IMG/VR virus record: IMGVR_UViG_3300045988_103705
DNA length: 64,000 nucleotides
Strand: one strand, 5' to 3'
Source of the DNA: a virus
This document shows positions 1,130 through 27,588 of this stretch, piece by piece. The notes under the pieces are model-generated. The model searched no databases. It had not been told where the DNA came from and saw only the letters and a list, made by a program, of their open reading frames with translations. The stretch's first letter is position 1, and every line of letters begins with the position of its first letter. The position numbers and the translations under genes are program-made.

Positions 1130-1693
1130 TCATAGCATCTCGATACACTCCTTTACCTTCAAGTTCATATCTTCAATGACCTTATCCAAAGATACTGGAT
1201 AACAGTCATGAGAATCAACTCCTACATGATACATATAAGGTCTATCTTCAAAGAAATTAGTCTGCTGATGCGTATGACCATATAGATTAATGATCATCTG
1301 CTTGAGACTTTCTTTCTCAAGATTTCCAGTCAAAGTGGGGAAATGAGACATATAGAAGTGATATTTCCTGTACTTAAGAGCAATAGCCCAAGCAGTTTCT
1401 ACCACATTAGGAAGCTCGGCGTACATTTTCTTGCGGCTGTCCGTACAGTGGTTTCCAAAAGTAATGTGGAGTTTTCCATTCATGGAGGAAATAAACTCCT
1501 TATTTCTCTCAAGACTGTCCGCCCCACCGAGGCAAAGGTCCCCAAGAACATATACATCATCTTCTGGAGTGACAATAGAGTTATGCCTCTCGATAAGAGC
1601 AACATTCATCTCTTCAACAGAATTGAATCCACGAGATTTATAGACAAACTCACGGTCATGCGAGAAGTGCCAATCCGAGGTTACGAAAATCAT
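1130..1693 (-). CDS. calcineurin-like metallophosphoesterase (candidate polynucleotide phosphatase partner of adjacent kinase)
   Basis: motifs D-x-H, GDL, GNH, GHTH; start overlaps the upstream gene stop (ATGA). Confidence 0.6.
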   Translation of the reverse strand: MIFVTSDWHFSHDREFVYKSRGFNSVEEMNVALIERHNSIVTPEDDVYVLGDLCLGGADSLERNKEFISSMNGKLHITFGNHCTDSRKKMYAELPNVVETAWAIALKYRKYHFYMSHFPTLTGNLEKESLKQMIINLYGHTHQQTNFFEDRPYMYHVGVDSHDCYPVSLDKVIEDMNLKVKECIEML

Positions 1694-2223
1694 TTATCTC
1701 CCTCCTCCATGTTATGATGATTGATTTTTACATCCTTAAAGCCATACTTGTAGAGTTTAAATTCTGCGGGAGTGGGAGGTCTAAAACCTCTAGCCATCTT
1801 TCTAATCGCGGAATCGGGTACTTTGGAAAATCCCTTTCTCAAGTTATTGCGGGCTATACAAGTATCAATCCCGCAATCACAAACTTCAAAACTAAGTCCA
1901 GTCTTCCCGTCCGGCCGCAGCCTTCCTAACAACTTGGCTCTTGATCCTTGAGAGATATGAGTAGCATCAACAAAGATGTAGTCAATCCCAATTTCAAGGC
2001 ACTCGTTAATTTGTCGAACGAACTCTTCAAATACTTCATTTTCTCGCGAGAAATAATCCTTATCTCCAATGAAACTTTCTCTTATCACATCGCGAGAAAT
2101 AATAGCAGTATGAAAGCCATCCATTTCAAGAAGTTCGGCTTCTTTATTAGCCCAAGTTGACTTCCCACTACCAGGGATACCAACCATGACTTTTACTTCA
2201 ATAGTCATACTGCTTTCCTCCAT
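1690..2223 (-). CDS. P-loop polynucleotide kinase-like protein
   Basis: Walker A GIPGSGKST near the N-terminus as in the T4 Pnk kinase domain; translationally coupled to the phosphoesterase. Confidence 0.6.
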   Translation of the reverse strand: MEESSMTIEVKVMVGIPGSGKSTWANKEAELLEMDGFHTAIISRDVIRESFIGDKDYFSRENEVFEEFVRQINECLEIGIDYIFVDATHISQGSRAKLLGRLRPDGKTGLSFEVCDCGIDTCIARNNLRKGFSKVPDSAIRKMARGFRPPTPAEFKLYKYGFKDVKINHHNMEEGDK

Positions 2224-2286
2224 TCCTCAACTTTCTATATATATTATATTATATTTTTATAATAATTTCAAAAGATTCTATGCGTC

Positions 2287-3153
2287 TCAAAATTCGACTG
2301 GTTGAATGAGGTCTTCGATATAAAGTCTATCTTCTTCCTTAAAAATAGGAATATTGAGATCGACGAACCAATAATGTTTAAAATGGATTGAACCATCCTC
2401 TCTTTCGGTCTCTTCGCAGTCTTTTATGCAACAAGAACCTCTTTGTAAATAGACGGGCAATTCATTCCAATCTATTCCTTTTTGAGAAATAAGCATTTCT
2501 AAAATTTCACTACTACATTTACCTTGAAGTTCACTATGAGAAAAATTCGCTTGTCCAACCATTTGAATAGAATTTCTAATAGCATCTAATTGGCGCCAAT
2601 AAATTAGATTTGTTACTTCTTCTTTCGGAATATTGAAAACACGAGCATCAAACATAGCCCCTCTTGCGTTTGCTATCCGTAAAGTTCTCATATATTCTTG
2701 ATGCTCAAGTTGAATTTCTACGCCCTGAGGAGTTAAAGAATTTTTCCAACCAATATCATATCTTTCAATAGCTGAACGAAACACCTTATTAAAAATCATT
2801 GTTGCCATGGACGCTGCTACAGAACACATTTTTTGAACTTCATAATCAAACCATGCGTCGCTATTTAATTTTTTATAGTCAACAAGAATTAGAGTTATTT
2901 CATCGCTTTGAGTATATCCAAGAACACATCCTTGGATATTTTTACATAAATATTTCATTGTTTCTTGCATAGCCGAAGTCAATACCGCATCAAATGGTTT
3001 TCTAAAACCTTTAGTAAAGGTATGAAATGCTTTTCCATCAATTCTAATTGCTACAGGTGTTCTACGCACAAGTCGAGTTTTTGGAATTTGCTCATAGAAC
3101 TCTTTCATGCGAGCGCCTAGCTGGTCATTCATATTATTCATCCTCCTTATCAA
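2287..3153 (-). CDS. Thg1-like protein (tRNA-His guanylyltransferase family 3'-5' nucleotidyltransferase)
   Basis: N-terminal RIDGKAFHTFTKG and GYTQSDEITLIL resemble the Thg1 VRLDGRNFHRF and AYGQSDEYSFVF motifs. Confidence 0.6.
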   Translation of the reverse strand: MIRRMNNMNDQLGARMKEFYEQIPKTRLVRRTPVAIRIDGKAFHTFTKGFRKPFDAVLTSAMQETMKYLCKNIQGCVLGYTQSDEITLILVDYKKLNSDAWFDYEVQKMCSVAASMATMIFNKVFRSAIERYDIGWKNSLTPQGVEIQLEHQEYMRTLRIANARGAMFDARVFNIPKEEVTNLIYWRQLDAIRNSIQMVGQANFSHSELQGKCSSEILEMLISQKGIDWNELPVYLQRGSCCIKDCEETEREDGSIHFKHYWFVDLNIPIFKEEDRLYIEDLIQPVEF

Positions 3154-3865
3154 CAGTAAAGATGCGTTCGTCGAAAGTATCCAAATTTAGAAGAACAGTT
3201 TTTCCAGACATATAACTGCAACAGTCAATATCAACTTTATGATTATCACAATACCATAAAGCTCCACCATTATATGAGTAAGAGAATTGTCTATCTGGCG
3301 GTAGAAAATTATTCGCATTATCTAATCTTAGAATTAAGTATTCTGAAATTGGAGTATGGCCATGAACGCAAATTCCTTCACCTTCGGTAGTATCATAGAT
3401 ATGCTCTCTATCCCATAGCAAATCCTCGTTTGCTGGGAATGGTTCTTTTGCAGGAGTAAAACCCGCATGACAAAGCATAATGGTTATTCCATTTTTATTC
3501 TTATATTCAAGATATAGGGGCAATTTTCTTAGATAGTGATACCATCCAGACTTAGCTCCATCATTAATCCATCCATTAAAAGTAGAAGCTCCTCCATTCC
3601 AACAGAGAAGATCAAAATGACCTCCTCCATATGTTTCATATTTAATATAATCTTTCATAGCTTTAACAAGCATATCTTCGTGATTACCTTTAATATAGAT
3701 AAAACGCGGATCCGACGCGACCGCTTTAATAGTTTCCCAAGACCGCGGACCTCGATCGCCGCAATCTCCTAGACAATAAACTTTATCTTCTGGCTTTAGA
3801 AAGTCACTAATTTTTTGATATAGCTCATACATACCATGAAGATCGCTAACTGCGTATATGCTCAT
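3134..3865 (-). CDS. Ser/Thr protein phosphatase (lambda-PPase/ApaH-like metallophosphatase)
   Basis: DLHG, GDxxDRG, GNHE motifs; AAGGGAG Shine-Dalgarno. Confidence 0.65.
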   Translation of the reverse strand: MSIYAVSDLHGMYELYQKISDFLKPEDKVYCLGDCGDRGPRSWETIKAVASDPRFIYIKGNHEDMLVKAMKDYIKYETYGGGHFDLLCWNGGASTFNGWINDGAKSGWYHYLRKLPLYLEYKNKNGITIMLCHAGFTPAKEPFPANEDLLWDREHIYDTTEGEGICVHGHTPISEYLILRLDNANNFLPPDRQFSYSYNGGALWYCDNHKVDIDCCSYMSGKTVLLNLDTFDERIFTVDKEDE

Positions 3866-3923: not shown

Positions 3924-3950
3924 AAAGAGAGCTGTAAAGCTCTCTTTAAG
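3924..3950 (-). terminator. hairpin terminator (representative copy)
   Basis: aaagagagctgtaaagctctcttt; similar agagggc-N4-6-gccctct hairpins recur after most genes in both modules. Confidence 0.55.
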
Positions 3951-4671
3951 AAAAGAATGGACAAGTTGGCATAGGGGAAATCTTATGTAAATTTCTCTTA
4001 TGTCTTTGTTCAATGTTTTTATATATCTCATATGGAGGAGTAATACCATTAAGTAGGAAATTATCTAGGACATCATAAGAAAATCCTAAATTTTCCTCAT
4101 CTGTTAAACCGCTTAATCCATCCTCTGGAGGCTTTTCAATGAAGTTCTTTGGCAATCCAAGCTCAATACCAATTTCTTTAACTTCCGTGGCAGTATAATT
4201 AGAGAGAATAGAAAAATCTCCTGCTGCATCTCCAAATTTAGTAGAATAGCCTACATAGTCTTCACTTCTATTGCAAGTATTCACAACTCTTCCATGACGG
4301 CTCGCGGCGATTGCATAAAGGATATTCATTCTTACTCTTGCTGGAACATTACTTGTAACTTGCGGCTGAATTCTAATATCATTGGGTAAAGACAAGAAAA
4401 TCTCCTGACAAGCTGAACCAATATTGATGTTGTAATGCTCTGTAATTTCGAGGTAATCAATTACCTCATTAGAAACATCAATATCATATTGGAATCCCTG
4501 TGGCATTTGTACGGCAATTACTCGATTCGGGCCAAGAGCCTTACAAAGAAGAGCCGCAGCCACTGTAGAATCTTTGCCGCCAGAAATCCCGATAACAGCT
4601 TTACACTCCGGCCCGTTTTTTATGAAATACTCTTTAATCCAATCTATAATTTTAGTAACCGTATTAGTCAT
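3946..4671 (-). CDS. nadE: NH3-dependent NAD+ synthetase
   Basis: PP-loop GISGGKDS; length 241 aa. Confidence 0.75.
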   Translation of the reverse strand: MTNTVTKIIDWIKEYFIKNGPECKAVIGISGGKDSTVAAALLCKALGPNRVIAVQMPQGFQYDIDVSNEVIDYLEITEHYNINIGSACQEIFLSLPNDIRIQPQVTSNVPARVRMNILYAIAASRHGRVVNTCNRSEDYVGYSTKFGDAAGDFSILSNYTATEVKEIGIELGLPKNFIEKPPEDGLSGLTDEENLGFSYDVLDNFLLNGITPPYEIYKNIEQRHKRNLHKISPMPTCPFFS

Positions 4672-6249
4672 AGAACTTCTCCCATCAATCTCTCTTTAAT
4701 AGTTTCGATAGTCTCTACGCTCTCCGTACAGAAACTTCCATTCTTGACTTTAAATTTCATTACATTGTTCTTATATCCAATGGATTCTTCAAGAGTAAGA
4801 TTTTCTACTAAAGAATAATCGCCATTCTCCTCTTTAAAAATTGCAACACATCCACGAGGAGACTTTTTCCCAGGGTCGGTTTTAGGCATTTTATAAATCT
4901 GAATTTCATCATTGCCGAGGATACAATCTGTAGCTTTAATAGCATAGCCTCTAGTATCACGAGTTACATACTGATAAGTATAAGCTCCAATTCCAAAACA
5001 TAGATTGGATACTGAGATATTATTTCTAAACGCACCAAGAGCAAACTTTTTCAGTAATCTCTGGAGTAATGGCATCTCCATAAATCATACGAATATAAGA
5101 AGGAAGAATAAAATATCCTTTAGTATTCAATTCACCGCCAAAGATTTCTTTTAGAAGATTTAAAGTTCCTATAAACTCAGGAGAACCGGGTACAGCATCT
5201 GGGTCGCCGCAGATAATCTTTACAGGATCTCCGCTATCAGGTCGAACGGAGAAACATCCATCTCTTGCTGCAATAACATCGTGCAACATAGGAAGAACCT
5301 TAGATACAATACCCCAATAATCATATGTATCAGATACATAGGTCATAGTTCCTGTAGGTTGCACTTCTGTGCAAAGATAATTAATAAAAAGCATTTCTGC
5401 AATAAGGTTAATATCCCAATTATCAAAAGCGGCCTTAGAGAAAAGATAACGCTCAGTTTCAGTTAAATCTCCATTAGTAATCTTCTGCTTCATCCAAGCT
5501 ACACCTTGTTCAACAACAGAGTGCTCAAGAGAAGGAGTTCCCATCATGGGAGGATTATTCTCAAGATCTGCTCCATAGTATTTTTCAAGGAGAAGGTTAG
5601 AACCAATGGTTGCAGTTCTATCAAAAGAAAGAGCATGGGCAGCACCTGAGATATAACCCGCTTCAAGGCTTGTATGCCCGCGCAGAGAAAAGTCTCCGCA
5701 CATATGCGAAAGAGCAGACATATCGTCGCAACTAGTCTTGACATAAGGCTCAATTAACTTGCGGCGATAAAAAGCGGTAGTGGCAGAAGTCGAGGGGAGC
5801 CAGTTATTAGCGCTCCACTGATCTTCGATAAATTGCGGAAGCCATGCAAAATCTTGATGATTAGAAAAAATTACATGGTCTGGAATTCCGACAGGAAGAA
5901 GGGTGCCCTCTGGAACCCCCATAATAGAAATGGGTAGATAGCCAAGTTCATGCAGTTTCTTAAATTTGGTGAAATCTGCATAGTCGGGATGAAAAGTGTT
6001 CTTGATTACATGATTCCATTCTTGCTCAAGAAGTTCAATCGGTTGGTCAAAGAATTTTGTCTGCCAGAATTCAAGCAATTTTTGGATAGTATATTGATGA
6101 CCAAAGACTACGGTTTTAGGGCAATTTGGATGATGTTTATAGCTACGAGCTGTCCAAGTAGAATAAACCATAGAGGCAGACTTCGGTTGCATCTTAATGG
6201 CATGACCAATTTTGTAGTAGTCAGCTGCAAACATAGGAAAGAAACTCAT
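4668..6249 (-). CDS. nicotinamide phosphoribosyltransferase family protein (NadV/NAMPT-like), interrupted by a frameshift
   Basis: N-terminus MSFFPMFAADYYKIGH resembles NAMPT; the C-terminal 137-aa ORF (4668..5081) overlaps the main ORF (5026..6249) in another frame around a T5/A5 run at 5047-5051. Confidence 0.6.
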
Positions 6250-6330
6250 AAAATCTTCCTTTCTTTATTTCTAAATATATTATATCATATATTTTTATAA
6301 AAATAAAAGCCCTCTTTATAAGGGCTTTTA

Positions 6331-6597
6331 TCAACTTTGAAGCAAGCTAAGTAGTGCTTCAATTCCAACATACTCTGGAGCGATGATACAAGTAATAATT
6401 GGAATAAAAATTGTTATAATAATTGCAAGTATTGCTATCGTTACAAACATAGCTGAGTGCCATTTCTTATAATCTACATCAAACATTATATAAAATATAA
6501 AAAATAATCCACCAACAAGAGCAATACCAATAAGTCCTCCCATAAAGATAGTTAATCCTAAATCTTTAATAGTTACATACCAACCATATGGGAGCAT
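6331..6597 (-). CDS. small integral membrane protein
   Basis: 88 aa, two to three hydrophobic helices. Confidence 0.4.
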   Translation of the reverse strand: MLPYGWYVTIKDLGLTIFMGGLIGIALVGGLFFIFYIMFDVDYKKWHSAMFVTIAILAIIITIFIPIITCIIAPEYVGIEALLSLLQS

Positions 6598-6681
6598 TTT
6601 CCATAATAGTTTGAGTTGTTACTCCAAAAAAATCTGCGAGCGACTGGAGAATAGATGCGAGAGTCTGCTCTAAAGATAGAT

Positions 6682-7131
6682 TCACTTTAATAACCCTCCA
6701 ACAACAGCACTTACAATCTTCATATCTGCCTTACCTTTAAGCTCCATAGAAATAGACTTCATAAGCGCACCACGATTTGTTTTGAGGAGATCAATACCTG
6801 CGGTTCCCGCGATCTCTCTTACTTTTGTTTCAATTTCTGCCTTATCAGTAATAAGCTGAGGGGCACACATCTTTACTACCTTCATATCCTCTTGATATTG
6901 ATGCAGTTTTTCAGGATAACTAGCAGGACAGGTATCAATCATTTCTTGTACTGTCTTTTGATATTTGATAAGGGTTTCGTCAACTAGTTGTTCAGTTAAT
7001 TCAACTCTTCCTTTTGGAGTAATGGCTGCTTTCTGACACGCATCAATCATGTCAGAAAGTACCCTCTTTGTATTTGTATTTCCATTTTTAAGAGCCATAA
7101 TCTTTAACTCTTGAAGTTTCTCAATAGTCAT
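6682..7131 (-). CDS. GatB/YqeY-domain protein
   Basis: 149 aa helical protein with a YqeY-like pattern; overlaps the next gene by 4 nt. Confidence 0.45.
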   Translation of the reverse strand: MTIEKLQELKIMALKNGNTNTKRVLSDMIDACQKAAITPKGRVELTEQLVDETLIKYQKTVQEMIDTCPASYPEKLHQYQEDMKVVKMCAPQLITDKAEIETKVREIAGTAGIDLLKTNRGALMKSISMELKGKADMKIVSAVVGGLLK

Positions 7132-7961
7132 CTTACAATCTCTACCTTTCCTCTAATATCCCACTCTGTCTTGAAGATGCTATCAGAAGTGAAGATTTTC
7201 TTCACAATATCTTGATTATACATATCGCCCTCAATCATGGTATGCTCTGCATGAGTTACATACAGATAAATATTCTTTGCGCCAGCTTCTTTAAGGGCGT
7301 TTGCTGCGTGATAAAAAGTTCCACCGCGAGAACAAATATCGTCTACAATTAAGACATTTCTCTCTTTAACGATTTCCTCATTTATTAACTGCAAACCAAG
7401 AATTTTTCCAGTAGACCAATCCCTTTTCTTAATTCCAAAAGCGTAAGGAAAATTAATGGGTGGAGCAGAATATCTCTTCATCGCTCCTTCATCTGGGAAA
7501 AATAGGATAGGAATTTCTCCTTCATATTCCTCAGTTCTCTTAATAGCCTCTTTGATTTCTCCAACTGGACTAAGATCAATAACTCTATCAAGTAGAGCTA
7601 ACGATACATTAGAATGAGCATCGCGTACAATAACTTTATCAAAATGAAGGCTATTAATTACTTGACAGAAGTATTTTAGAGTAAATACATCTTCAAGTTC
7701 TTGAACCCGATCCATCCTCGCATGAGGAATATATGGCATATCTAGGTTTACAGGGAAATCTTCGAAATGTCCCTTAACACAAATGAGAGTAAATAATTCT
7801 GCATCATTCTCGTACTCCCAAACAATCGTATCATAATCGAAGTAGTTGGGAGGCATGTTAATGTGCAGCGTACCATCTGGAAAATGATTTTGTTCAATTA
7901 CGTCTGTCCAATGACTGCGTGTATTAATTAGACTAATCATTTTTTTAATCCTCCACATCAA
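7128..7961 (-). CDS. phosphoribosyltransferase / ribose-phosphate pyrophosphokinase (Prs)-like protein
   Basis: PRTase motif VLIVDDICSRGGTF in the C-terminal domain; two-domain, 277 aa. Confidence 0.55.
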   Translation of the reverse strand: MMWRIKKMISLINTRSHWTDVIEQNHFPDGTLHINMPPNYFDYDTIVWEYENDAELFTLICVKGHFEDFPVNLDMPYIPHARMDRVQELEDVFTLKYFCQVINSLHFDKVIVRDAHSNVSLALLDRVIDLSPVGEIKEAIKRTEEYEGEIPILFFPDEGAMKRYSAPPINFPYAFGIKKRDWSTGKILGLQLINEEIVKERNVLIVDDICSRGGTFYHAANALKEAGAKNIYLYVTHAEHTMIEGDMYNQDIVKKIFTSDSIFKTEWDIRGKVEIVR

Positions 7962-8517
7962 TCTGCTGGGCTTTGAAAATAGTTAGCGCTGCTTCATGCG
8001 ATTCTGGAGTTACTCCTGCACACGCGCTAGAATGGACGATAATTCTAGTATTTGGCATCGCCGCACGAAGCATAACTGCATTAGCCATAACGCAAATATC
8101 GGTACAAAATCCACAGATATGAATTTCTACTTCCTCTGGATTCTTCATTTTTAGAGAATCGTATACTTCATTGACCATATCAGTACTGCCGAAGGTATCT
8201 TTTTCATAATAGTTAAATTTGTTATTCAACGCAACCATAATTCTGGAATCCATACACCAGCCCACACTTGCTTTGATACAATGTTTAATGGGAAGTCTTT
8301 TTCCTTCCAAAGTATCAAAGTAATCATTATCATGGGTATCCATGGTACAAATAACTTCCTCCCAACAGAATCGTTTAATTAGATTAACGATATTAGGAAC
8401 CGCGGCATCCGCTGTCTTAGATCCCAAAGAACCAGTAATAAAATCATTCTGCGCATCTACAATCACAAGAAGTCTATACATATCATAATTCCTTTCTTTT
8501 ATATAAATATTATACAA
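7945..8517 (-). CDS. isochorismatase-family hydrolase (nicotinamidase PncA-like)
   Basis: LLVIVDAQNDF N-terminal cysteine-hydrolase motif; catalytic Cys region ICGFCTDICV. Confidence 0.6.
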   Translation of the reverse strand: MYNIYIKERNYDMYRLLVIVDAQNDFITGSLGSKTADAAVPNIVNLIKRFCWEEVICTMDTHDNDYFDTLEGKRLPIKHCIKASVGWCMDSRIMVALNNKFNYYEKDTFGSTDMVNEVYDSLKMKNPEEVEIHICGFCTDICVMANAVMLRAAMPNTRIIVHSSACAGVTPESHEAALTIFKAQQIDVED

Positions 8518-8728
8518 TATTTTATTATAAAATTAAAGGAGAGAATATACTCTCCTTTAATTTAAAGTTTAATTGGTTATAGAATTGCGTTTATTAGTAC
8601 ACAAAGAAATGTAGCTCCAATGCCAGTATAATACCCAAGATAAAACTCTTCATCAACTGGGCCAAAAATAGTTTGAACCGTATAATAAACAAAGAGCATA
8701 CCTACCGCTCCCAAAATAATTCCTAACA

Positions 8729-10000
8729 TTAGATCTCTTCCTCCTGAGCCTCTTCCATGTCAGGTACATTCTCACTTTCTTTAATAATTCCCTCGATGAC
8801 TTTAAACTCATAAGTCTTAGACTTAAAAGCTGTGAAAGCACGACGATTTACAATTCGGACAACGACGCCCTCTTTTACATGGGTGCGGCCGATCGGATCA
8901 GTGAGATCTTCGAAGTATTTGTTAATGCGCTCCTGCAAATCCTCTATGGTAGTAAATTCAAAATCCTCAATCACAGGAACTCGATTAAAGCCATGAGCAT
9001 TACACCATTCAGTAATCTCGTCAGGAGTCCACTCTCTTTCTCCATTTTCAGAGGTAATACGATAAATATACATCTTGCTCTGACCAGGCTCACATCCATA
9101 AGAGAAAATAGAACGCTTACCAAACTGCTTTACAAAAGTCTTATCATTGACTTTGGTATTATCTCCGATAGGCATAATGGTGTTCTCTTCATTAGGGCCG
9201 TAATAACCCACTACTTCGTAGAAAACTTCCATTCCGGGCTCAAGATAAGGTTTCAATGCTTCATGATGTGGCATACGAAACTGGTCATTTCCATAAAATC
9301 CCTGAGAGTTCTCTGTGACTACACAACGACGAGTTCCAAGAACATAAGCCTGCTTAGTGCGCTTTTTCATATGGAAGAGGCGACGGAAGAAACCATTAGG
9401 AAGCTAAGCATAAGTATTCATAGAGCGCTGAGAAGTTCCGTGCATTTTAAGGGTCATATTGAGAATATCTCCGGAGCGGAACTTATCAAGATTATATGCC
9501 AATTGTTCAGTATCAGTATGCATAGAGAACTCAGGATATGTAATTCCCTCAGCCTTACGACCTTTATAAGAAGTCTTAACCTGACCAGTGGGAGTCTTGC
9601 GCTTAGGAATGTATTTACGGCAAAATTCTTTGTCGTTGATAGTGTTTACCTTATCTCCATCTTTCCAGTTCTGATTTCCGAATTTTTCATAAACTTTATC
9701 AAGAGCAATTACAACACCAGAATTCTGATTGCCGCGAAGCTTAATAGCCCTGATATGTCCATTATTTTCGATGTAGCCACCCTGAGGAGTTCCATCCTCG
9801 TTCTTGCGGAAGAGGCAAAATTCATTCCCGAACCATCTCTCAATCTCGCCATCAGTAGGAAGATAAAGAACCAACTGACCGGTTTGCATATCAGGGCCGA
9901 CAATTACGCCCTCATTGAAACAATCTGCAAGATAAAGGCGGTCACTATTCTCGTCCTTCCGCACATTCTGCAACTTAGTTACAAGACCAAAATATGCCAT
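8729..10000 (-). CDS. ATP-dependent RNA ligase with an in-frame TAG
   Basis: motif I KMHGTS (KxHG), motif V KEGVVVRI; the two track ORFs (9404..10000 and 8729..9370) are in the same frame and joined by TAG at 9404-9406. Confidence 0.55.
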
Positions 10001-10019
10001 TCTATATCATTCTCCTTTC

Positions 10020-10358
10020 TTACCATTTATCATATCTATCATGATCAGGGTCTTCTTCAATAGTAGTCACCAAATAGGAAAGCCAACCTTCAATTTCCTC
10101 TTGATACATACCAGAAATTTCATCTTCATCTTCTTGGGTCAGTTCATCCTCAGCCAGTCCATTTTCTTCACAATACTGCTCTCGAATGTCTTCATCAGAC
10201 AAAATCCCATGCAGTCCCTCATAAGATTGGTACTCTTCAATCGCTAGCTCTCGAGCAGCTTCCTCGGCGTCTTCTCTGGAGTCATAATCTTCTGTGCAAT
10301 GATATTGATACCCATCAAATCCTCCGCTCAGGCCTGCGTATAAATTATATTTAGCCAT
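10020..10358 (-). CDS. acidic hypothetical protein
   Basis: 112 aa, highly acidic. Confidence 0.4.
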   Translation of the reverse strand: MAKYNLYAGLSGGFDGYQYHCTEDYDSREDAEEAARELAIEEYQSYEGLHGILSDEDIREQYCEENGLAEDELTQEDEDEISGMYQEEIEGWLSYLVTTIEEDPDHDRYDKW

Positions 10359-11175
10359 TTACTCTCCTCCAACCCATTCCATAGTAGTGGTTACCACCCT
10401 TGATAGCTTTCTCGATGTTTTTTATCGTATTTTCAAGATTGAAATGCTCATAGGTGTCAGACTCGCATTTATTCTCTTTAAGCCACAGTGCAGCAGCTTC
10501 AACACTAGTAAAAGTATTTGTAGCTCGCTTTTTAGAATTAACAATGCAAATAGTTCCAGCAGGATAACCAGCCTTATTCCATTTAGGAGTAAAAACACTT
10601 TCTTTATTAGTTGCTTTCCTCTTCCAATCAGCAAACATTTTATCAAGTGTCTCTCTTGATGTGTTACTCATAAAATCATATACTTCCTTTAATAGAACTG
10701 CATCATCTAAGGAGTTGTGATTTTGTTCAGCAGAAGAATTAAATCTTCTGAGGGTATTCAAAAGACTGTGATTACATTCCCATTTCAGCTCTTTTTTGCA
10801 CATCTTGGCATAATCTCGATAATTGCCACAAATATATCCCAACGCCATTTTTGCTTTAAGCGCAGTTGCATGACGAGAAGTATGTCGAATAAAATCTCCA
10901 TCAGAATTTCCCCATACAAGAAATTCTGGTGCATCATCTAGATTTTCAAACAACCAATCATAGAACTTAGAGAATACGGCATCGGCAGACATAGCACTAT
11001 CAATCATCTCTGCTGTGATACCAGTAAGATTAGTAATGAAAGGAGTAATTTTACCTTTCTTTGGGGCTACGAGTGCATAAAAAGTCTGACCATCCTCTCT
11101 AATACATCCGATAGAAATAATTTCTTGCGAAAATTGTGTAGCCTCAAAGTCGATAAAATATTTCATTACTAACAA
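10351..11175 (-). CDS. DEDDh 3'-5' exonuclease (DnaQ/RNase T-like)
   Basis: FIDFEATQF exo I motif; H-x4-D near the C-terminus of the exonuclease domain. Confidence 0.55.
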   Translation of the reverse strand: MLVMKYFIDFEATQFSQEIISIGCIREDGQTFYALVAPKKGKITPFITNLTGITAEMIDSAMSADAVFSKFYDWLFENLDDAPEFLVWGNSDGDFIRHTSRHATALKAKMALGYICGNYRDYAKMCKKELKWECNHSLLNTLRRFNSSAEQNHNSLDDAVLLKEVYDFMSNTSRETLDKMFADWKRKATNKESVFTPKWNKAGYPAGTICIVNSKKRATNTFTSVEAAALWLKENKCESDTYEHFNLENTIKNIEKAIKGGNHYYGMGWRRVNG

Positions 11176-21621: not shown

Positions 21622-22959
21622 TTATATTACTGTGCTAGAGCTTCCACAATTAAAAATAATTGTAGCAGTCTAAGTTAAATCATCAATCTTTCCACTTTTA
21701 GCAACAGATGATAAGTCTGCATCATTAGCTTTTTTAGCAAGAGCCGCAGGTAACCCGTTGATATTCTCTATGGTAGGTTGAGCACGAGTTACGCTAATAA
21801 TACCATCAGTCTCAGACACCGCGATTACAAATTGATTTGCTACAACAGAATCTTCTTTATCTAAAGCGTTTACCTTAGAATCTGCATAATCTTTAGCCTC
21901 TTGTTTAGCGGAATTAATTTTCCCCTAAGCTGTCTCTGCTGTATCATATGCTGAAAGATCTACCATTCCAGCTAAAACATCCCACTTAAATTCTTCTTCT
22001 CCCACATCTATACAAACAATATTAGTACCCGCGGGATAACTCTTCCCAGAACCTTCTACGAAATCGTCTGTAGTAGTGAATTTATCAAGAATGTTATAAA
22101 CTTTTCCTTCTTCTGTTGCAGTTAGTTCTGGTAGAGAAGCGAACGCAATAGATCCTCCTGCTTTATAAGTAGAGGAAATTCTAGCAGCAATTTGCTAATC
22201 AGTATAGGTTTTAGCTTCATCATAAGCACCTTTAATAGTAGTGGAAGAACCACTTCCTTCACCAATTAGCTCTGTTTTTGCAGCTCCAATTTTAGAATCT
22301 ACTTCTGTGGTTTTTGCATATTCATTGATTTTTAGAGCTGCAATTTTTTCATCAGTGGCACTAGCAGCCTCCTCGATAGCTTCGCTTTTTGCTGTGTCTG
22401 CAGCGCCAGCTGCGTCATAAGCATTGGATTCAGTATAAGCTGCTGATCCAAGTCCATGAACTTTTACTTCTTTTTCAGAACCAGTAATTCCAAATTTTAC
22501 AGTACCATTAGTAGCTCCTTCAGCTAAATTATAAGTAGGAGCGGTAAGAGAAATAGTATTTACATCTGTCCAAGATCCGCCAGTTTTTGGTCTAGATTGA
22601 AGCTTAAAGCCCATATCTCCATTTTTAACAATCTAATATTGTGTATCGGTATCCTGAACTTTTTCTCCAATAAAATCTTCGAGTCCGGTAATTTCAGTTG
22701 CTGCATAAGTTGGTTTACTTGCCGCTTTGGCCCAAGAATAAACATCAGCGGCAGTTCCGCTTACCCATTTTAAAGTTTTAAAATCTGATTCGCCATCACC
22801 GATTTTTAACAAATAGGTAGGCTCATTTTGAGCAACTCCAGTTTCAACAGGAACTTCAACAACCGCCATTTCTCCTTTTAGAAGAATGGGGTTATTGGTA
22901 TCCCAATTTTCATAAGTATCATATTTTAATTGGATTCTTGTATTAAAAGTTGTAGCCAT
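21622..22959 (-). CDS. tail fibre-like protein, TAG-recoded
   Basis: 445 codons ending TAA; in-frame TAG at 22633, 22195, about 21936 and about 21672; N-terminus ENWDTNNPILLKGE...KIGDG...W; GGAGGAAG Shine-Dalgarno. Confidence 0.6.
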
Positions 22960-22985
22960 TATTTATCTTCCTCCAAGTTGATTTT

Positions 22986-23580
22986 TATTCACTAACAGTA
23001 GCATCTCCGCCATTTAAGATAAGCTCTGTACCAAGAGTCTAAGTAATTTTTTCTATATTTATGTTATTGACAATCATAGTTCCATCGCCTGTAATAGAAA
23101 CGCCGTTTTCACTAGTAGTGCTTTTTACTACACCAAGAGCCTCTACTGTAGCAATAGGAATAGTAACTGCGCCATCGCTAACCTAAAGAGGAGTAGTTCC
23201 TACGGTTATACTCTTAATCTTCTCTGCTAAAGCCGCGGGAAGACCAGTAATTTTCTCCTATGCAATCGCTTTTACGCCAAGAGTTTTATCATCAGGATCA
23301 ATTTCTAATTCATCACTGACTCCTTTGATTTCTGCTAAACCCTATAATTTAGCAATTAGAGTGTCTTGAACTAAAGATGATCCTTCTACTTTGTCGACTT
23401 TATTAGCTAACTTAGTATCTACACTACTTGTAGTTTCGTATCCACTTAAATCTACAAATCCCGCAAGAACATCCCATTTGTAAGTTCCAGCATCATCAGT
23501 GTCAATACATACTACATTAGTTCCAGCTGGATATTTATTATCAGCTCCTTCAACGAAGTCTTCAGTAGTGGTGAAAGCAT
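22986..23580 (-). CDS. tail fibre paralogue (C-terminal domains); start unresolved
   Basis: reading frame KDAFTTTEDFVEGADNKYPAGTNVVCID is homologous to the middle of the 21622..22959 product; contains TAG codons; the AAGGAGG plus ATG nearby is out of frame. Confidence 0.4.
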
Positions 23581-23600
23581 CTTTAAAATGCCTCCTTATT

Positions 23601-24061
23601 TTAGTCTACTGCTGTCCCACAGTTTAATATTAAAGTAAAACCTTCAACATCCACTATTTTATCAAGTCCTACAGAATTAATTTCTCCGGTTCCATCTGAA
23701 AGTATTTTTATCTAGTTATTCTAACTACTCCCCTTAATTAAACCAAGATTTTCTTCTGTTCCCGCCGGAATAGTAACTTTATTATCTTCAACCGGCAAAT
23801 CTTTATTTCCGATAGAGATAGTTTCTATTACTTTATCCTAAGATATTGGAGTATACCACTCTAATGTGCCATCTTCTCTTTTTCTAATAGATTGCCCTGT
23901 TGATGCTTCTGTAAATCCTTTTAATGAAATCTGTCCAATTCCATCAATAACAATAGATTGATTGTCTACATCAACATTTACCAAACTACTATTTATATAT
24001 TTTAACTATTTCCACTCGGTGGATCCATCTCCAATTTTTAACTTTCCAGTATCTATTTCAA
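23601..24061 (-). CDS. tail fibre N-terminal domain protein, TAG-recoded
   Basis: AAGGAGG plus TTG start; FKRGTSEKWTELNPILRQGEPGFEIDTGKLKIGDGSTEW; five in-frame TAG; TAA stop. Confidence 0.5.
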
Positions 24062-24175
24062 ATCCCGGCTCACCTTGACGAAGAATTGGATTTAATTCGG
24101 TCCACTTCTCTGATGTTCCTCGCTTGAACTAAAATATTGTTTTATAAACAACTTCAGCCAAAGTTACTCCCTCCT

Positions 24176-24433
24176 TTAGCCAATTAGTCCGCCATCATAA
24201 ATAATAGTTGTATCTTCTGGAGGAAGAGGCTAATCTCCGCCTCCACCAGAGGGCTACAACACCCATTCATGATCAGAATTGAGAATATATTTATTTCCAT
24301 TTTCAATTACATATGCCGAACTGCCTGGCTTTCGGTTTGTAGGGAGATTAGCAACATCACTTTGGTAATCACATAAAAAATGAATCGCGCCATATATAAT
24401 TTTATTGGCTGTATTTTTACCAACAGTAATCAT
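24176..24433 (-). CDS. small hypothetical protein, TAG-recoded
   Basis: AAAGGAGAATAAGT ATG; about 85 aa with two in-frame TAG; TAA stop. Confidence 0.4.
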
Positions 24434-24554
24434 ACTTATTCTCCTTTCTTAAAGAAGTAGAGAAAATTATCTCTCTTTATACTATATAACAATATTGACA
24501 AGAGATTTCACATAAATTGTCCAAACCCCATTTTTGAAAGAAAAATTTGGTGAG

Positions 24555-24587
24555 CCTGCGCGAACGGAAACTCGGAGCAGAACGAGG
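24555..24587. repeat. 33-nt exact repeat, second copy at 1..33
   Basis: CCTGCGCGAACGGAAACTCGGAGCAGAACGAGG is identical at 1-33 and 24555-24587; both copies abut a minus-strand hairpin terminator. Confidence 0.8.
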
Positions 24588-24710
24588 ACAACAGAAAAGA
24601 GGGGCTAGCTTATGGCTAGCCCCTCTAGGGTAATCAAGGTTTTGCAGAACCTCAATCATACATATTGCATTTATAAATGAAATATATATAAACACCGCTG
24701 CAACGATGGA

Positions 24711-24786
24711 TGGTTGCGGGTATGAGAATCGAACTCATTCCTCAAGCCTTATGAGGGCTGCGACTTAACCACTTGTCCTACCCGCA
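24711..24786 (-). tRNA. tRNA with anticodon CAU (elongator Met or Ile-lysidine type)
   Basis: loop CTCATAA; acceptor TGCGGGT/ACCCGCA, A73, CCA. Confidence 0.7.
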
Positions 24787-24825
24787 ATATATAAAGCAGT
24801 TTTAAGACTTGCTTAGGTCTTTATA

Positions 24826-25947
24826 TTAAAGGTCAATATACTTATTGACTCCATAAATTGAAACCTTAGTAAAGGTTGCATTTTCAACCCTTACTTTTTC
24901 GTTAAATTCCTTTCTAGCCTTTGCACTCTCTTCCTCAGTGGGGTAATCATAATCGAAAGCATCAAAATCACAATAGAAATTAGCATCTACGCCCATAAGT
25001 ACGAGAGTACCATCCATAGATTTAATCTTTCCTGGATCAAAAGAAAGGTAGAAATCATTCTTATCTTTTTTAAACCGAAGACACTGAACCTCTTTGGCAT
25101 AAAGATCGAGATTATAATTATATGCAGTCATAACCCAACCATTAGTCAAACGAACATTAACATCAAAGAGAACACCTCTCTCATAGTTAATATTCAAATC
25201 CATTAAGGTTTCCTCCAAAGGATAACCCTGTTTCAAATCAAAAGCAATAGCCCTTAGGCTATCATAAGTGATGTCTGCGACCTGCGATAACTTAACAACC
25301 TTTTCAATTTCCTCTTCCTTACCGCTTCCAAGCGCATCCATCATATATGCCCGTACTTCATCTGCGGTAGGACAGCCAATCTCAAAATGATAGTGAAAAC
25401 GACCAGGGCGATTGATAAGAAATTCGTTCAATTTTCTTGTATCGTTACAAGTGATAACAAAAAGTTTCTTTCCATTATCAATCCCATCAAATAGACTTAA
25501 AAGTCCTACCTGCGGATCGCCGTCATCATTCTTGGCAAAAGTCTTTTCAAACTCGTCAAAGATAATAACAACTTCTTGTTCAATAGAACTGAGGAAATTA
25601 CTAATTCCGGGGATAGGAGAATCGACTACAATCACCGGCATTTCTCGCTTAATAGCGGCGTCCGCGATCATTCTTGCAAAAAGAGATTTGCCAATACCTT
25701 TCTTACCAGAAAGAATTATACCAAAGTTTCGCTCGGACTTATCGAAAGAATTAAAAACTTTCTCTACCTTATGACTATGCGAGCCATAAACTTTTTCTTC
25801 GCCAATCTGCAAATTATTATGAACAGAAAGCCAAATTCCCATTTGGGGATGGAAACCGATTGTATAGGTTCCGATTGGCAACTCTTTATAGGTTTTTACA
25901 TCGTCGCCATATACCTGAAAACGATTTCCTGTATGGACAATATTCAT
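24826..25947 (-). CDS. AAA+ ATPase
   Basis: Walker A GKKGIGKS, Walker B VVIIFDEFEK, sensor/Arg NRPGRFHYHF. Confidence 0.6.
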   Translation of the reverse strand: MNIVHTGNRFQVYGDDVKTYKELPIGTYTIGFHPQMGIWLSVHNNLQIGEEKVYGSHSHKVEKVFNSFDKSERNFGIILSGKKGIGKSLFARMIADAAIKREMPVIVVDSPIPGISNFLSSIEQEVVIIFDEFEKTFAKNDDGDPQVGLLSLFDGIDNGKKLFVITCNDTRKLNEFLINRPGRFHYHFEIGCPTADEVRAYMMDALGSGKEEEIEKVVKLSQVADITYDSLRAIAFDLKQGYPLEETLMDLNINYERGVLFDVNVRLTNGWVMTAYNYNLDLYAKEVQCLRFKKDKNDFYLSFDPGKIKSMDGTLVLMGVDANFYCDFDAFDYDYPTEEESAKARKEFNEKVRVENATFTKVSIYGVNKYIDL

Positions 25948-25976
25948 CTATTTACTTCCTTTCCTATTGTTAGGTG

Positions 25977-26064
25977 TGGTGGGCCAGGAGGGAATCGCAC
26001 CCACTCGAGCTCGAAAGCACCGGTTTTACAGACCGGGGTGTCTACTTTATCACTTTACTGACCC
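25977..26064 (-). tRNA. tRNA-Tyr(GUA)
   Basis: class II; anticodon stem CCGGT/ACCGG, loop CTGTAAA; CCA encoded. Confidence 0.75.
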
Positions 26065-26082
26065 ATATATAAAAGAATTGCT

Positions 26083-26169
26083 TGGTCCCGGAGACGGGAC
26101 TCGAACCCGTACGAGATTGCTCCCAGGGGATTTTAAGTCCCCTGTGTCTGCCAATTCCACCACTCCGGG
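26083..26169 (-). tRNA. tRNA-Leu(UAA)
   Basis: class II; loop CTTAAAA; acceptor CCCGGAG/CTCCGGG. Confidence 0.75.
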
Positions 26170-26252
26170 ATATTGCACATTTTTATGCTGAGTTGTGCTT
26201 CTCACCTTTCTCTTCTTCTTCCCCGGCGGATGAAAGTATCTCCGGCATATTC

Positions 26253-26371
26253 GGCGGGGAGTGCAGGACTCGAACCTGCGACATCGTGCACCCAAAGCAA
26301 GTTAAAGATTGCTGTTACGGTCTTTAACAAGACCAAACTATAACGCGCTCTACCAACTGAGCTAACTCCCC
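26253..26371 (-). ncRNA. atypical 119-nt tRNA-like gene with about 40 nt of inserted hairpins
   Basis: canonical acceptor GGGGAGT/ACTCCCC, D-arm GCTCAGTTGGTAGAGC and T-arm GCAGGTTCGAGTCCTGC, but 67 nt lie between D and T arms, including hairpins GGTCTT-GTTA-AAGACC and AGCAA-TCTTTAAC-TTGCT. Confidence 0.45.
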
Positions 26372-26617
26372 ATATAAACGATTTTGGATAAGGTTAATCG
26401 AGAACCTCGTCAGTGTGCTACTACGCCAAAGGCGAGCCCTGCAGGTTTACTCGCCACTCTTTAAATGGTGGACGCTTTCAATCCTACATCCTGACAATAG
26501 AAGTCTTATTTACGATTTCTGTACGTATTGCTTCTATTACTGGCACCGCTTCTTCGTGTTGAACGAAGACTTCTTGGTTCAGAGCCAAGCGTGCAGACCG
26601 CTACACTAAAGCGGTAT

Positions 26618-26692
26618 ATGGCAGCGGATAGAGGGGTCGAACCTCTAACAAGGGAGTCAAAGTCCCGCGTGTTACCATTACACCAATCCGCT
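26618..26692 (-). tRNA. tRNA-Gln(UUG)
   Basis: loop CTTTGAC; A1-U72, G73; 3' end TCCGCTGCCA. Confidence 0.75.
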
Positions 26693-27052
26693 ATAAATCA
26701 AGACGCATTAAAGAAAAGACTGTTTATCAGACAGTTGCGTAAACCATTCCGCCAAAATCGCTAAGTGCGATCCACAGGATTCGAACCTGCATCTTCTATT
26801 AAGAAGAATTTGCTGTACGCGTCTTTATTTTACTTATATTTTAATTACACTTACTGCCATATCACAGTTGAACAAATCATCATAAATCTTCTCTAAAGAA
26901 GCATCTTCATCAATGGTATATCCATTCAAAAGAGAATGTTTCTTTAGAGCTTCTTTTTCTGATTCAGCAGAAATTTTTTCTAACTTAATTTCATTTTCAA
27001 AGAAACTAAGAACTCCAACAACAAAATTCATAATTTTCTCCTAAACTTTAGG

Positions 27053-27128
27053 TGGTACCCGATGACGGGCTCGAACCGCCGACCTCCGCGGTGTAAACGC
27101 GATGCTCTCCCAGCTGAGCTAACCGGGC
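27053..27128 (-). tRNA. tRNA-Val(UAC)
   Basis: anticodon stem TCGCG/CGCGG, loop TTTACAC. Confidence 0.7.
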
Positions 27129-27588
27129 ATTTAACTCAGAAAGATATTTTTAAATTCGTTCTCAAGCATAAAGAAAACTTCGCTCGCGCAACCACCTTTG
27201 CCGACTTGAACATAAGCAATCATAACATCTCCAGAGTCAGCATCGAAACCACGACAAATAGTCTTAACAAGACCATAAGGATTAGCTCGATAAAAGCAAC
27301 CCATAGCAACAAAGTTATTCTTCATATTTAAGACTTCCTCTCTCAACTTTCTATAAATATTATATCATTTATTTTTAATATTTTCAAAAGTTTCTAAAGA
27401 CTAGACTCAAAAGGGCTTGCCCATATGCTCAACATTTTCTTGGCTTCCCTTCAAAAAGAAAATGCTTCTTAGCTTTCTAAATAAGATTTATTTAGTAAAA
27501 TCTTTTCATACAAGTATATTTACATATATTTGCTGTATTGAGTCTATATAGGAAAGGAGTGATACATATTCTCGCTATTTACGCGAGA

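Follow-up and report, generated by a model that had tools for sequence, protein, structure and literature searches.

On the minus strand of the window (the whole 64,000-nucleotide stretch of DNA analysed here, IMG/VR record IMGVR_UViG_3300045988_103705) lies, at 3946-8517, a gut-phage operon for NAD+ metabolism which, in a reading to which we assign roughly even probability, would represent a distinct four-enzyme subfamily of NARP1-type operons, predicted from its sequence to rebuild NAD+ through nicotinate and nicotinate adenine dinucleotide (NaAD). In the strain represented by the window the pathway is most likely broken, while its close relatives carry it intact. We found no description of such a four-enzyme, deamidated version of NARP1 in the searchable literature. 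NARP1 itself consists of Adps and Namat, which are annotated as Prs and Nampt (Osterman et al. 2024, with structures of Namat from SpβL1 and Adps from ICP1), while NARP2 consists of Nampt and Nmnat (KVP40) and NARP3 of PnuC and a NadR-like protein.

All five genes that the first-pass annotation had listed as a phage NAD+ reconstitution set are present where it had placed them, and Adps and Namat family members are among them; of the two pairs it had suggested, the one offered second, Adps-Namat (NARP1), stood, while "NadV-Prs" matches no described pathway of that kind. The strand carries genes for a hydrolase resembling nicotinamidase, a kinase resembling Prs, YqeY and an NH3-dependent NadE, along with a membrane ORF of 88 aa and a NAMPT-like gene that is split, flanked by genes with RNA-repair and nucleotide functions. 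The same gene order is repeated in dozens of related phage contigs, and the clustering is not due to chance.

Table 1. Features of the NAD+ operon (positions in the window)
Feature	Position	Strand	Details
NH3-dependent NAD synthetase NadE	3946..4671	-	241 aa; PF02540 E=3e-46
Namat-like transferase, C-terminal part	4668..5027	-	119 codons, +1 frame; phrog_448 E=2e-25
Frameshift site	5026..5031	-	GTT TAG vs GTT AG(A) in relatives; extra T within 5030-5028
Namat-like transferase, N-terminal part	5026..6249	-	407 codons; phrog_448 E=5e-99
Hydrophobic membrane ORF	6331..6597	-	88 aa, between YqeY and the NAMPT-like gene; omitted from the first-pass annotation
YqeY-like protein	6682..7131	-	149 aa; PF09424 E=1e-8; phrog_1460
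Adps-like, predicted ADP-ribose pyrophosphokinase	7128..7940	-	270 aa; phrog_619 E=1.6e-67
PncA-like isochorismatase-fold hydrolase	7945..8481	-	178 aa, likely start at ATG 8481

The proposed pathway would take up the ADPR and nicotinamide into which defence NADases cleave NAD+. The nicotinamidase would convert nicotinamide into nicotinate and NH3, and the Adps-like enzyme would convert ADPR into ADPR-PP; the Namat-like transferase would then combine nicotinate with ADPR-PP to yield NaAD, which the NH3-dependent NadE would amidate to NAD+. The transferase has retained the adenine clamp, but has exchanged the nicotinamide-recognising His and Asp for Gly and Ala, and a neighbouring Ala for Ser. 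We infer nicotinate as the substrate and NaAD as the product only from these residue changes and from the gene context, and the anti-defence role of the four-gene operon is likewise a putative one. Counting against the proposal, the nicotinate route spends one extra ATP, and its benefit is not obvious.

By profile score, the Prs-like protein belongs to the Adps family and is not a canonical Prs. With a profile made from 123 Adps proteins neighbouring Asp-type Namats, it scores 242.8 bits, where the validated Adps of ICP1 reaches 255 and the Prs of E. coli 140, and it falls under every NCBIfam ribose-phosphate diphosphokinase cutoff. It keeps K185, D212, D213, C215 and F221 (ICP1 numbering), lacks the C-terminal helices of Prs, and does not group with purine/pyrimidine phosphoribosyltransferases, a placement that the first-pass annotation had named as telling against its reading. 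The ORF spans 7128-7961, and gene callers on identical contigs start it at ATG 7940. The Adps-like and Namat-like genes are located on one strand with 879 bp between them, occupied by YqeY and the 88-aa ORF, whereas in Phass-1 and most other loci of the type described below adps directly adjoins namat.

The NAMPT-like protein is, judging by its motifs and structural matches, a member of the Namat family of NARP1. Once repaired, it finds SpβL1 Namat as its best match among solved structures (E=1e-96), with human NAMPT at about 4e-40, and its adenine clamp, GAYTYQYVTRD, encoded in the C-terminal part downstream of the frameshift, fits the Namat signature GSXΦXΦXΦTRD apart from a Ser to Ala change at position 2. 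At the third position of the selectivity-clamp loop (SCL), where NARP1 Namats have Arg, Lys or Tyr, K38 aligns with R40 of SpβL1. The N-terminal part carries F187, R190 and the catalytic H243, together with the diagnostic G185, A213 and S240. It is in the nicotinamide pocket that the protein departs from Namat, having Ala213, Gly185 and Ser240 where SpβL1 has Asp215, His187 and Ala242, respectively. The three columns concerned (H187->G, D215->A and A242->S in SpβL1 numbering) separate the two clades of Namat homologues perfectly, being invariant in 28 representatives of the Ala clade and in the opposite state in 107 of the Asp/Glu clade, with the remaining catalytic and clamp residues all conserved across the comparison. 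In SpβL1 Namat, D215 forms a hydrogen bond with nicotinamide, and activity drops about 8-fold in D215A; in human NAMPT, the counterparts of D215 and H187 are D219, which sets substrate specificity, and H191, and the two share one hydrogen-bond network.

The hydrolase is apparently a divergent member of the nicotinamidase family, with predicted activity. It matches PF00857 (E=7e-20), among solved structures it comes nearest to isochorismatase-fold enzymes and to the pyrazinamidase/nicotinamidase of P. horikoshii, and it combines the isochorismatase fold with the Asp-Lys-Cys triad and the Asp-x-His...His metal site of nicotinamidases, although at 21 bits it scores well under the NCBIfam PncA equivalog cutoff of 174 (NF008623). 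The residues D9, K94 and C130, which are catalytic in PncA structures, and D48, H50 and H67, the metal ligands there, are kept in 42-43 of 43 distinct homologues, all from Ala-type loci. With TTG as the longest possible start, the ORF extends to 8517 (7945-8517). NadE, the start of which overlaps the stop of the C-terminal transferase frame, scores 156.5 bits with TIGR00552 (cutoff 63.65) and has the PP-loop GISGGKDS, in agreement with SGGxDS, in a single synthetase domain with no glutaminase domain. The closest solved structures are single-domain NH3-dependent NadE enzymes, 3fiu (E=1e-31) and 2e18 (E=3e-30). We take the former to be Francisella NadE, which works as an NMN synthetase and may thus speak against NaAD, as opposed to NaMN, as the substrate here; the lead of 3fiu over 2e18, an ordinary NadE, is trivial.

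We surveyed the neighbours within about 4 kb of Namat homologues at 184 phage and bacterial loci. Asp or Glu occupies the position of SpβL1 D215 at 129 of them, including the validated ICP1 locus, the source of Adps, and the validated NARP1 locus of Paenibacillus foliorum, and none of these 129 has a PncA or NadE homologue nearby. At the other 55 loci the position is occupied by Ala, with PncA present at 52 (of the three loci lacking it, two lie at the end of a contig) and NadE at 40. The first-pass annotation had taken NadE and the PncA-like enzyme as signs of a pathway broader than the described pairs, and their occurrence only beside the Ala-type clade bears this out. In other phage lineages the four genes are found again at 44-49% identity, and in Clostridium chromosomes their homologues are located directly downstream of the ADPR-sensing regulator NrtR. 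An adjacent NadE is missing at 14 bacterial Ala-type loci; bacterial nadE normally resides elsewhere in the genome. Two loci from Desulfovibrionaceae MAGs, L133 and L134, contain PncA, the transferase and NadE with no detectable Adps, which would fit PRPP as the donor instead. All 55 Ala-type sequences form one clade, split from the others in 37 of 40 neighbour-joining bootstraps, and, given this single origin, the link between Ala-type transferase, PncA and NadE is one evolutionary event kept over deep divergence, not repeated convergence.

An ordinary NARP1, making NAD+ from nicotinamide and ADPR-PP, could in principle be accompanied by PncA and NadE that boost, in parallel, the opening and closing reactions of the host Preiss-Handler pathway, with the pocket swap being neutral or tuning some trait other than the choice of base. 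Conservation of the adenine clamp and the catalytic core agrees with this explanation, as do the known promiscuity of Namat, which also accepts PRPP, and the known addition of other genes to NARP1 by phages (Macro phosphatase, RyDEP). We nevertheless consider it unlikely, as PncA and such a transferase would compete for nicotinamide, PncA and NadE make no pathway without host PncB and NadD, the swap and these neighbours co-occur without exception across the 184 loci, and D215A lowers the activity of SpβL1 Namat about 8-fold. The swap and the PncA/NadE context would be equally suited to nicotinate use in a PRPP-based Preiss-Handler route, in which the Prs-like protein supplies PRPP, the NAMPT-like protein gives NaMN from the nicotinate made by PncA, host NadD converts it to NaAD, and the phage NadE finishes. 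The two MAG loci without Adps point in this direction, as does the NCBIfam family name of the transferase match, nicotinate phosphoribosyltransferase (score below cutoff), and NrtR-controlled prs-nadV operons were first interpreted in this way. Such a route is decidedly unlikely, however, since the Prs-like protein scores as Adps and is devoid of the regulatory C-terminus of Prs, the adenine clamp, which is required only for ADPR-PP, is strictly kept in the Ala clade, and scans of the window turned up neither NadD nor NMNAT.

The biochemistry aside, the operon could serve general NAD housekeeping or an auxiliary metabolism that raises NAD+ for replication with no specific anti-defence role, as may be suggested by the control of homologous bacterial operons by the metabolic regulator NrtR, by the ability of NARP2 to raise NAD+ with or without defence, and by the RNA-repair and nucleotide genes in the neighbourhood. 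This we find highly doubtful, in view of the fact that the Adps-Namat pairs tested so far all counter NADase defences, and that ADPR, the input of the pathway, is the product of such defences.

The transferase gene of the window is interrupted by one extra T, in agreement with the frameshift noted in the first-pass annotation. Alignment with Phass-1 and relatives shows that GTT AGA became GTT TAG A, so that the N-terminal frame stops at a TAG (5028-5026) made by the insertion; the downstream ORF, taken whole, covers 4668-5081 (137 aa). Eight 96%-identical contigs read TGC GTT AGA AAT, in frame, and so does, at this position, the whole cluster at 98% identity, the intact members of which were recovered from 279 data blocks. 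Restoring the frame yields a transferase of 526 aa that shares 98% identity with P0001, an intact protein of 529 aa, and the 360 nt at 4668-5027 are identical to L005. Irreparable truncation, which the first-pass annotation had raised as counting against its reading, applies only to the extent that the gene is disrupted, as a one-base deletion would repair it. The same lesion, at 100% identity, is present in contigs of two other samples put together by different assemblers; its absence from the intact 98%-identical relatives indicates that it is strain-specific and not a case of programmed recoding. With the transferase gene split ahead of the clamp, the pathway of this genome has probably lost its central step, most likely being inactive at the joining of nicotinate to ADPR-PP. 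In the same strain, an RNA ligase gene has undergone a GAG->TAG change, which, beside the frameshift, suggests that lesions are accumulating.

It is scarcely credible that the split gene is expressed and the pathway works, whether through prfB-like programmed +1 frameshifting at GUU-UAG-A, with a Gln-reassigned amber as the slow A-site codon, or through two associating fragments. The site does have a stop codon after one that is prone to shift, the phage has a tRNA with anticodon CTA, and the lesion recurs in at least two more samples. On the other hand, the in-frame relatives show that the shift site is not conserved, a tRNA-Val slipped to UUU would mispair at the first position, the downstream ATG is not preceded by a Shine-Dalgarno-like element, and the second lesion, in the RNA ligase gene, suggests that damage is building up.

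Compared with known systems, the operon resembles NARP1 in combining an Adps-family kinase and a clamp-bearing Namat-family transferase in one phage operon, predicted to turn ADPR into NAD+, and differs from it in the H187->G, D215->A and A242->S substitutions, in having nicotinamidase and NadE as obligate neighbours with NaAD, rather than NAD+, as the predicted transferase product, and, in the window, in the frameshifted transferase and the two small genes separating it from Adps. NARP1-AP, with its Macro-domain ADPR-1''-phosphate phosphatase, and RyDEP-associated NARP1 are likewise extended by input-widening accessory enzymes; however, those feed ADPR to an unchanged Adps-Namat core, whereas here the additions are on the pyridine side and the transferase is altered, and neither a Macro nor a RyR domain turned up. 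With the Preiss-Handler pathway (PncA-PncB-NadD-NadE) the operon would share the nicotinamidase at the first step, NadE at the last, and deamidated intermediates, but PncB and NadD are absent, and a single proposed Namat-like step from ADPR-PP would replace both. Pfam scans of 30 window ORFs revealed no nucleotidyltransferase, and no HxGH motif came to light, the 64 kb covered being part of a genome of some 148 kb. NARP2 and NARP3 are similar in being phage-encoded means of NAD+ restoration, although the scans of window ORFs brought up neither Nmnat nor PnuC nor a NadR-like gene, and the Namat clamp is present here and missing from true Nampt. Finally, the Clostridium homologues recall, by their position directly downstream of NrtR, the NrtR-regulated prs-nadV operons (Rodionov et al. 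2008), but the classical operons have two genes, read as converting PRPP and nicotinamide to NMN, while those in Clostridium add PncA, often NadE, and an Ala-type transferase.

The YqeY gene, which the first-pass annotation had counted among the NAD-related ones, yielded no evidence of such a link. It is confined to the sub-lineage of the window (L005-L022) and is absent from the Phass-1-like, P0109-like, P0096-like and bacterial loci holding the other four genes. The 88-aa ORF, which has no family match in Pfam, phrog and NCBIfam searches, is also conserved in this sub-lineage only, and both are lineage-specific passengers. Besides the four-gene module, one related phage contig (L108) harbours a PnuC and AAA_28 pair.

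The gene set under study comprises NadE, a NAMPT-like gene divided between two frames, a YqeY protein, a Prs-like protein and an isochorismatase-fold (nicotinamidase-like) protein, all of them encoded on the minus strand with operon-like packing in the ORF listing, with start/stop overlaps joining the Prs-like gene to YqeY and the NAMPT-like gene to NadE. Since the ORF listing and the family searches of the window return every one of these genes, the five-gene cluster proposed in the first-pass annotation is confirmed, with two qualifications: no evidence ties YqeY to NAD, and an 88-aa hydrophobic ORF had been overlooked. Pfam searches of 30 ORFs and a motif search detected no NMNAT, Nudix, Macro, NADAR, PnuC or NadR in the window, which at 64 kb covers part of a genome of about 148 kb. 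Apart from the NAMPT-like gene, the module genes are intact in the window and near-identical to the copies in its relatives. The module sits inside an RNA-repair-like gene set, which includes a Thg1-like tRNA-His guanylyltransferase, a PNK/AAA_33-like kinase, an RNase T-like exonuclease, an RNA ligase, an RlaP-like nucleotidyltransferase and three calcineurin-like phosphoesterases, of which the ApaH-like one adjoins NadE, a position kept in relatives.

Coordinates of the NAD module and of other features in the window and in collected loci
Feature	Sequence	Coordinates	Strand	Match or remark
RNA-repair-like gene set	window	1130-3865 and 8729-13531	-	
NadE	window	3946-4671	-	PF02540, E=3e-46; TIGR00552, 156.5 bits (cutoff 63.65); PP-loop GISGGKDS
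NAMPT-like gene, two frames	window	5026-6249 (407 aa) and 4668-5081 (137 aa)	-	phrog_448 (both)
Inserted T	window	5030-5028	-	within a TT run
88-aa hydrophobic ORF	window	6331-6597	-	family searches without match
YqeY protein	window	6682-7131	-	PF09424
Prs-like protein	window	7128-7961	-	ATG at 7940 gives 270 aa; phrog_619, E=1.6e-67
Isochorismatase-fold protein	window	7945-8517	-	likely ATG at 8481, 178 aa; PF00857, E=7e-20
RNA ligase gene	window	8729-10000	-	in-frame TAG at 9404-9406; 198 + 213 codons under the standard code
Vault-like/SPFH protein and DUF2828/DUF7788 protein	window	14538-16124 and 17392-18912	-	
tRNA array	window	19040-36906		31 tRNA genes in window
tRNA with anticodon CTA	window	20097-20171	-	amber suppressor
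AAA/STAND-type NTPase	window	24826-25947	-	nSTAND3, NACHT-like
GC skew sign flips	window	46000-48300 and 62000-64000	+	
TAG-rich ORF	window	62242-63312	+	11 in-frame TAG
Namat homologue	L015, crAss-like phage cr85_1	4352-5872		annotated as two pieces around an in-frame stop
NrtR-linked locus	L105, Clostridium chromosome	5666-9470		
NADAR-domain protein	L106/L107, phage contigs	11621-12499		
Module with PnuC and AAA_28 kinase	L108, phage-like contig of GCA_001577415.1	4533-6342 and 8378-12903		

NAD+ depletion is among the commonest bacterial anti-phage strategies, and the pathways by which phages reconstitute NAD+ are a very active topic. NARP1 consists of Adps, a Prs-like ADP-ribose (ADPR) pyrophosphokinase, and Namat, a Nampt-like transferase joining nicotinamide to ADPR-PP, while NARP2 combines Nampt with Nmnat (both published in 2024), and NARP3 combines PnuC with a NadR-like enzyme; NARP3 was published in 2026, as was NARP1-AP, which adds a Macro-domain phosphatase and, together with RyDEP, represents the known extensions of NARP1. 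The “NadV-Prs pair” invoked at first pass is not a separate system, the pair annotated as “Prs + Nampt” being NARP1 itself. Namat differs from Nampt by an adenine “selectivity clamp”, a helix of the form G-S-X-Φ-X-Φ-X-Φ-T-R-D with aromatic X, which in the window transferase reads GAYTYQYVTRD, with K38 at the clamp-loop position. With its frame repaired, the transferase matches SpβL1 Namat structures at E=1e-96, as opposed to about 4e-40 for human NAMPT. The kinase falls under all NCBIfam cutoffs for a true ribose-phosphate diphosphokinase, lacks the C-terminal Prs helices, and retains K185, D212, D213, C215 and F221 of the ICP1 Adps structure. As the PDB set did not include that structure, so that solved matches were to canonical Prs only, the kinase was placed with phage sequences and our own profile, built from 123 Adps proteins, on which it scores 242.8 bits, compared with 255 for the validated ICP1 Adps and 140 for E. 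coli Prs. The clamp motif, structure matches, retained Adps residues and profile score identify the window pair as an Adps-family kinase and a Namat-family transferase, the alternative that the first-pass annotation had also offered.

While these NARP1 family memberships are solid, the nicotinamide pocket of Namat is not preserved in the window transferase. In the SpβL1 structure, Asp215 hydrogen-bonds nicotinamide, and D215A lowers activity about 8-fold; the human counterpart, Asp219, has been described as fundamental for NAMPT substrate specificity and takes part in a hydrogen-bond network with His191. The window transferase has Ala at this position, in the motif DRTAT versus GTDT. After clustering at 90% identity, three alignment columns separated 28 Ala-type from 107 acidic-type (Asp or Glu) representatives without exception: G185 in the window (H187 in SpβL1, H191 in human), A213 (D215 and D219, respectively) and S240 (A242 in SpβL1). 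Common to both groups are D13, Y15, F189, S190, R192, the catalytic His and the entire clamp. In the phage sub-clade, moreover, Arg or Lys takes the place of the Gly that precedes the Ala by two residues; this position corresponds to human G217, at which an Arg generates a basic patch next to the pocket. In a neighbor-joining tree built without the motif columns, a single branch set every Ala-type sequence apart from the others, and the split was recovered in 37 of 40 bootstraps, indicating one ancient sub-family and not a repeated, convergent origin of the Ala state. Glu replaces Asp at the nicotinamide-binding position in L015, L065, L068, L080-L083, L094 and L102, the first of these being the crAss-like phage homologue listed in the table.

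We gathered Namat homologues with their flanks from IMG/VR, from one genome per bacterial species and by individual look-ups, searched six-frame ORFs with the window proteins to identify neighbors, and read the pocket residue as an alignment column. Among the 184 loci surveyed, none of the 129 with Asp or Glu at the SpβL1 D215 position, which include the experimentally validated loci of ICP1, the source of the validated Adps, and of the Paenibacillus foliorum NARP1 pair, has a PncA or NadE homologue within about 4 kb; the corresponding numbers for the 55 loci with Ala are 52 for PncA and 40 for NadE. Two of the three Ala loci lacking PncA start at a contig edge, and the 14 in which PncA is present and NadE is not adjacent lie on bacterial contigs, chiefly of Clostridium. 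The partnership is maintained across phages, Clostridia, Oscillospiraceae and one Desulfovibrionaceae MAG. It can be seen in the order PncA-Adps-Namat-NADAR-NadE on two phage contigs at 47% identity (L106 and L107), a distant lineage in which a NADAR-domain protein lies between the Ala-type transferase and NadE, and in the order PncA-Adps-Namat-NadE on a phage-like contig at 49% identity (L108). The latter also carries, about 2 kb upstream of the module, PnuC and an AAA_28 kinase in a NARP3-like combination, and this genome may harbor two NAD-restoring systems. In Clostridium chromosomes (L105 and L109-L128) the arrangement is NrtR-Adps-PncA-Namat(Ala), often with NadE next. NrtR is an ADPR-responsive regulator of NAD genes, and these loci suggest a bacterial ADPR-recycling operon under an ADPR sensor, from which the phage module may derive.

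The isochorismatase-fold protein aligns with the P. horikoshii pyrazinamidase/nicotinamidase and retains the catalytic Asp9, Lys94 and Cys130 and the metal ligands Asp48, His50 and His67, which are invariant or near-invariant in 43 distinct homologues from Ala-type loci. It scores far under the NCBIfam PncA cutoff and is a divergent PncA member with putative nicotinamidase activity. The window NadE is of the single-domain, NH3-dependent type. Its best solved match, by a negligible margin over ordinary NadE, is 3fiu, which we take to be the Francisella enzyme. As the Francisella enzyme is an NMN synthetase, the window NadE may act on either NaAD or NaMN. Few phage genomes carry NadE, which is present in 48 of 50,697 records, as compared with 1,521 having an Adps-like gene, and the best matches among phage records are from uncultured human-faecal phages and phage Phass-1.

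Judged by residues and gene content, there is about an even chance, or slightly less, that the module operates by a deamidated route, in which the phage nicotinamidase would deamidate nicotinamide freed by a defence NADase, Adps would pyrophosphorylate ADPR, the Ala-type transferase would couple nicotinate to ADPR-PP to yield NaAD, and NadE would amidate NaAD to NAD+, possibly with the ammonia released in the first step. Nicotinate is the candidate substrate because the observed changes (the acid and its His partner lost, Ser gained and, in phages, Arg or Lys nearby) are what would be expected for a change from neutral amide to carboxylate, and because a nicotinamidase is needed in that case only; a deamidated product is suggested because NadE would not otherwise be needed. 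We regard as unlikely the reading of the locus as ordinary NARP1 accompanied by independent helpers. Still less probable is that the NAMPT-like enzyme is a nicotinate phosphoribosyltransferase in a PRPP-based route that needs host NadD. Only two Ala-type Desulfovibrionaceae MAG contigs (L133 and L134) show a pattern that fits PRPP better than ADPR-PP: PncA and NadE are present, yet no Adps-like gene is detectable within 8 kb. ADPR-PP as the donor is favored by the Adps partner and by conservation of the adenine clamp. That the genes provide a housekeeping NAD supply, as opposed to acting against defence, seems improbable.

The deamidated route would rest on a reaction not previously described, nicotinate + ADPR-PP -> NaAD + PPi, catalyzed by Ala-type enzymes. 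Somewhat short of an even chance, in our estimation, is the broader proposal that this reaction, together with nicotinamidase, Adps and NadE, constitutes a fourth self-contained pathway, “deamido-NARP1”, widespread in human-gut Clostridia phages, with an ancestral or parallel NrtR-controlled version in Clostridium chromosomes. A literature search for NARP1, Adps or Namat linked with nicotinamidase, NadE, nicotinic acid or NaAD returned no relevant paper. If true, the proposal would add new enzyme chemistry arising from a remodelled transferase pocket in combination with nicotinamidase and NadE, explain how NAD+ is rebuilt by phages whose hosts rapidly deamidate nicotinamide, provide a three-residue annotation rule (Gly/Ala/Ser versus His/Asp/Ala), and allow the NrtR-linked Clostridia operons to be reread as ADPR-recycling modules.

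In the window itself the transferase gene is interrupted, as had been noted at first pass. Three-frame translation and alignment with the intact 532-aa Phass-1 gene place one extra nucleotide between “WCV” and “RNNIS”, just ahead of the adenine-clamp helix: eight contigs of relatives read TGC GTT AGA AAT, and the window reads TGC GTT TAG AAA, revealing a single inserted T. The closest protein cluster (P0001), whose contigs reach about 149 kb and which was encountered in 279 data blocks, shares 98% identity and has an intact frame of 529 aa; removal of one T from the window yields a 526-aa protein, the final 119 residues of which are identical to that cluster. The lesion is real, and a fault of any single assembly is excluded, since the exact 407-aa product also appears on contigs of two samples, ERZ501463 and ERR209850, which were built by different assemblers and are 100% identical to the window. 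The 360 nt downstream of the insertion are identical to L005, a relative's contig, and the upstream part, roughly 1.2 kb, differs by about 4.8%; the gene is therefore a mosaic and the lesion recent, and the pattern suggests that recombination took place not long ago. An error in the A5 homopolymer (GAAAAAG) before the stop was rejected, as alignment with Phass-1 and close relatives puts the extra base in GTTT; so was read-through of TAG as Gln, because a TAA follows two codons later. A conserved programmed frameshift was likewise discarded, the relatives being in frame. It is highly improbable that the product is rescued by +1 frameshifting or by complementation between fragments. With its transferase interrupted, the module has probably lost its function at the central step in the window strain, and the broken copy shows that at least one phage lineage in circulation can do without it.

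The closest deposited genome is that of Phass-1, from human gut, with 69.5% nucleotide identity across the NAMPT-like gene; a megablast search of the phage collection with the region gave no match, and Phass-1 was retrieved only in distant mode. Its GenBank annotation is nearly all “hypothetical”. It is filed under “Caudoviricetes code 15 clade” (TAG = Gln), and Clostridia were predicted as its hosts in the Phass-1 paper, a prediction fitted by a SpoVT/AbrB-like gene in the window. The tRNA genes of the window include an amber suppressor, and its RNA ligase gene is interrupted by an in-frame TAG, which is GAG (Glu) in four related contigs (L005, L006, L008 and L011), corresponding to a G-to-T change in the window strain; it may be tolerated via the suppressor tRNA, with Gln replacing Glu, or may represent a second lesion. 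Plus-strand ORFs in the two stretches where the GC skew changes sign are rich in in-frame TAG, and both features fit late genes that are recoded and lie on the opposite strand. One protein combining major-vault-protein shoulder and SPFH domains, and another with DUF2828/DUF7788, form an unusual pair for a phage; the vault-like protein of relatives is longer, at 811 aa. The tRNA-rich region also encloses the AAA/STAND-type NTPase.
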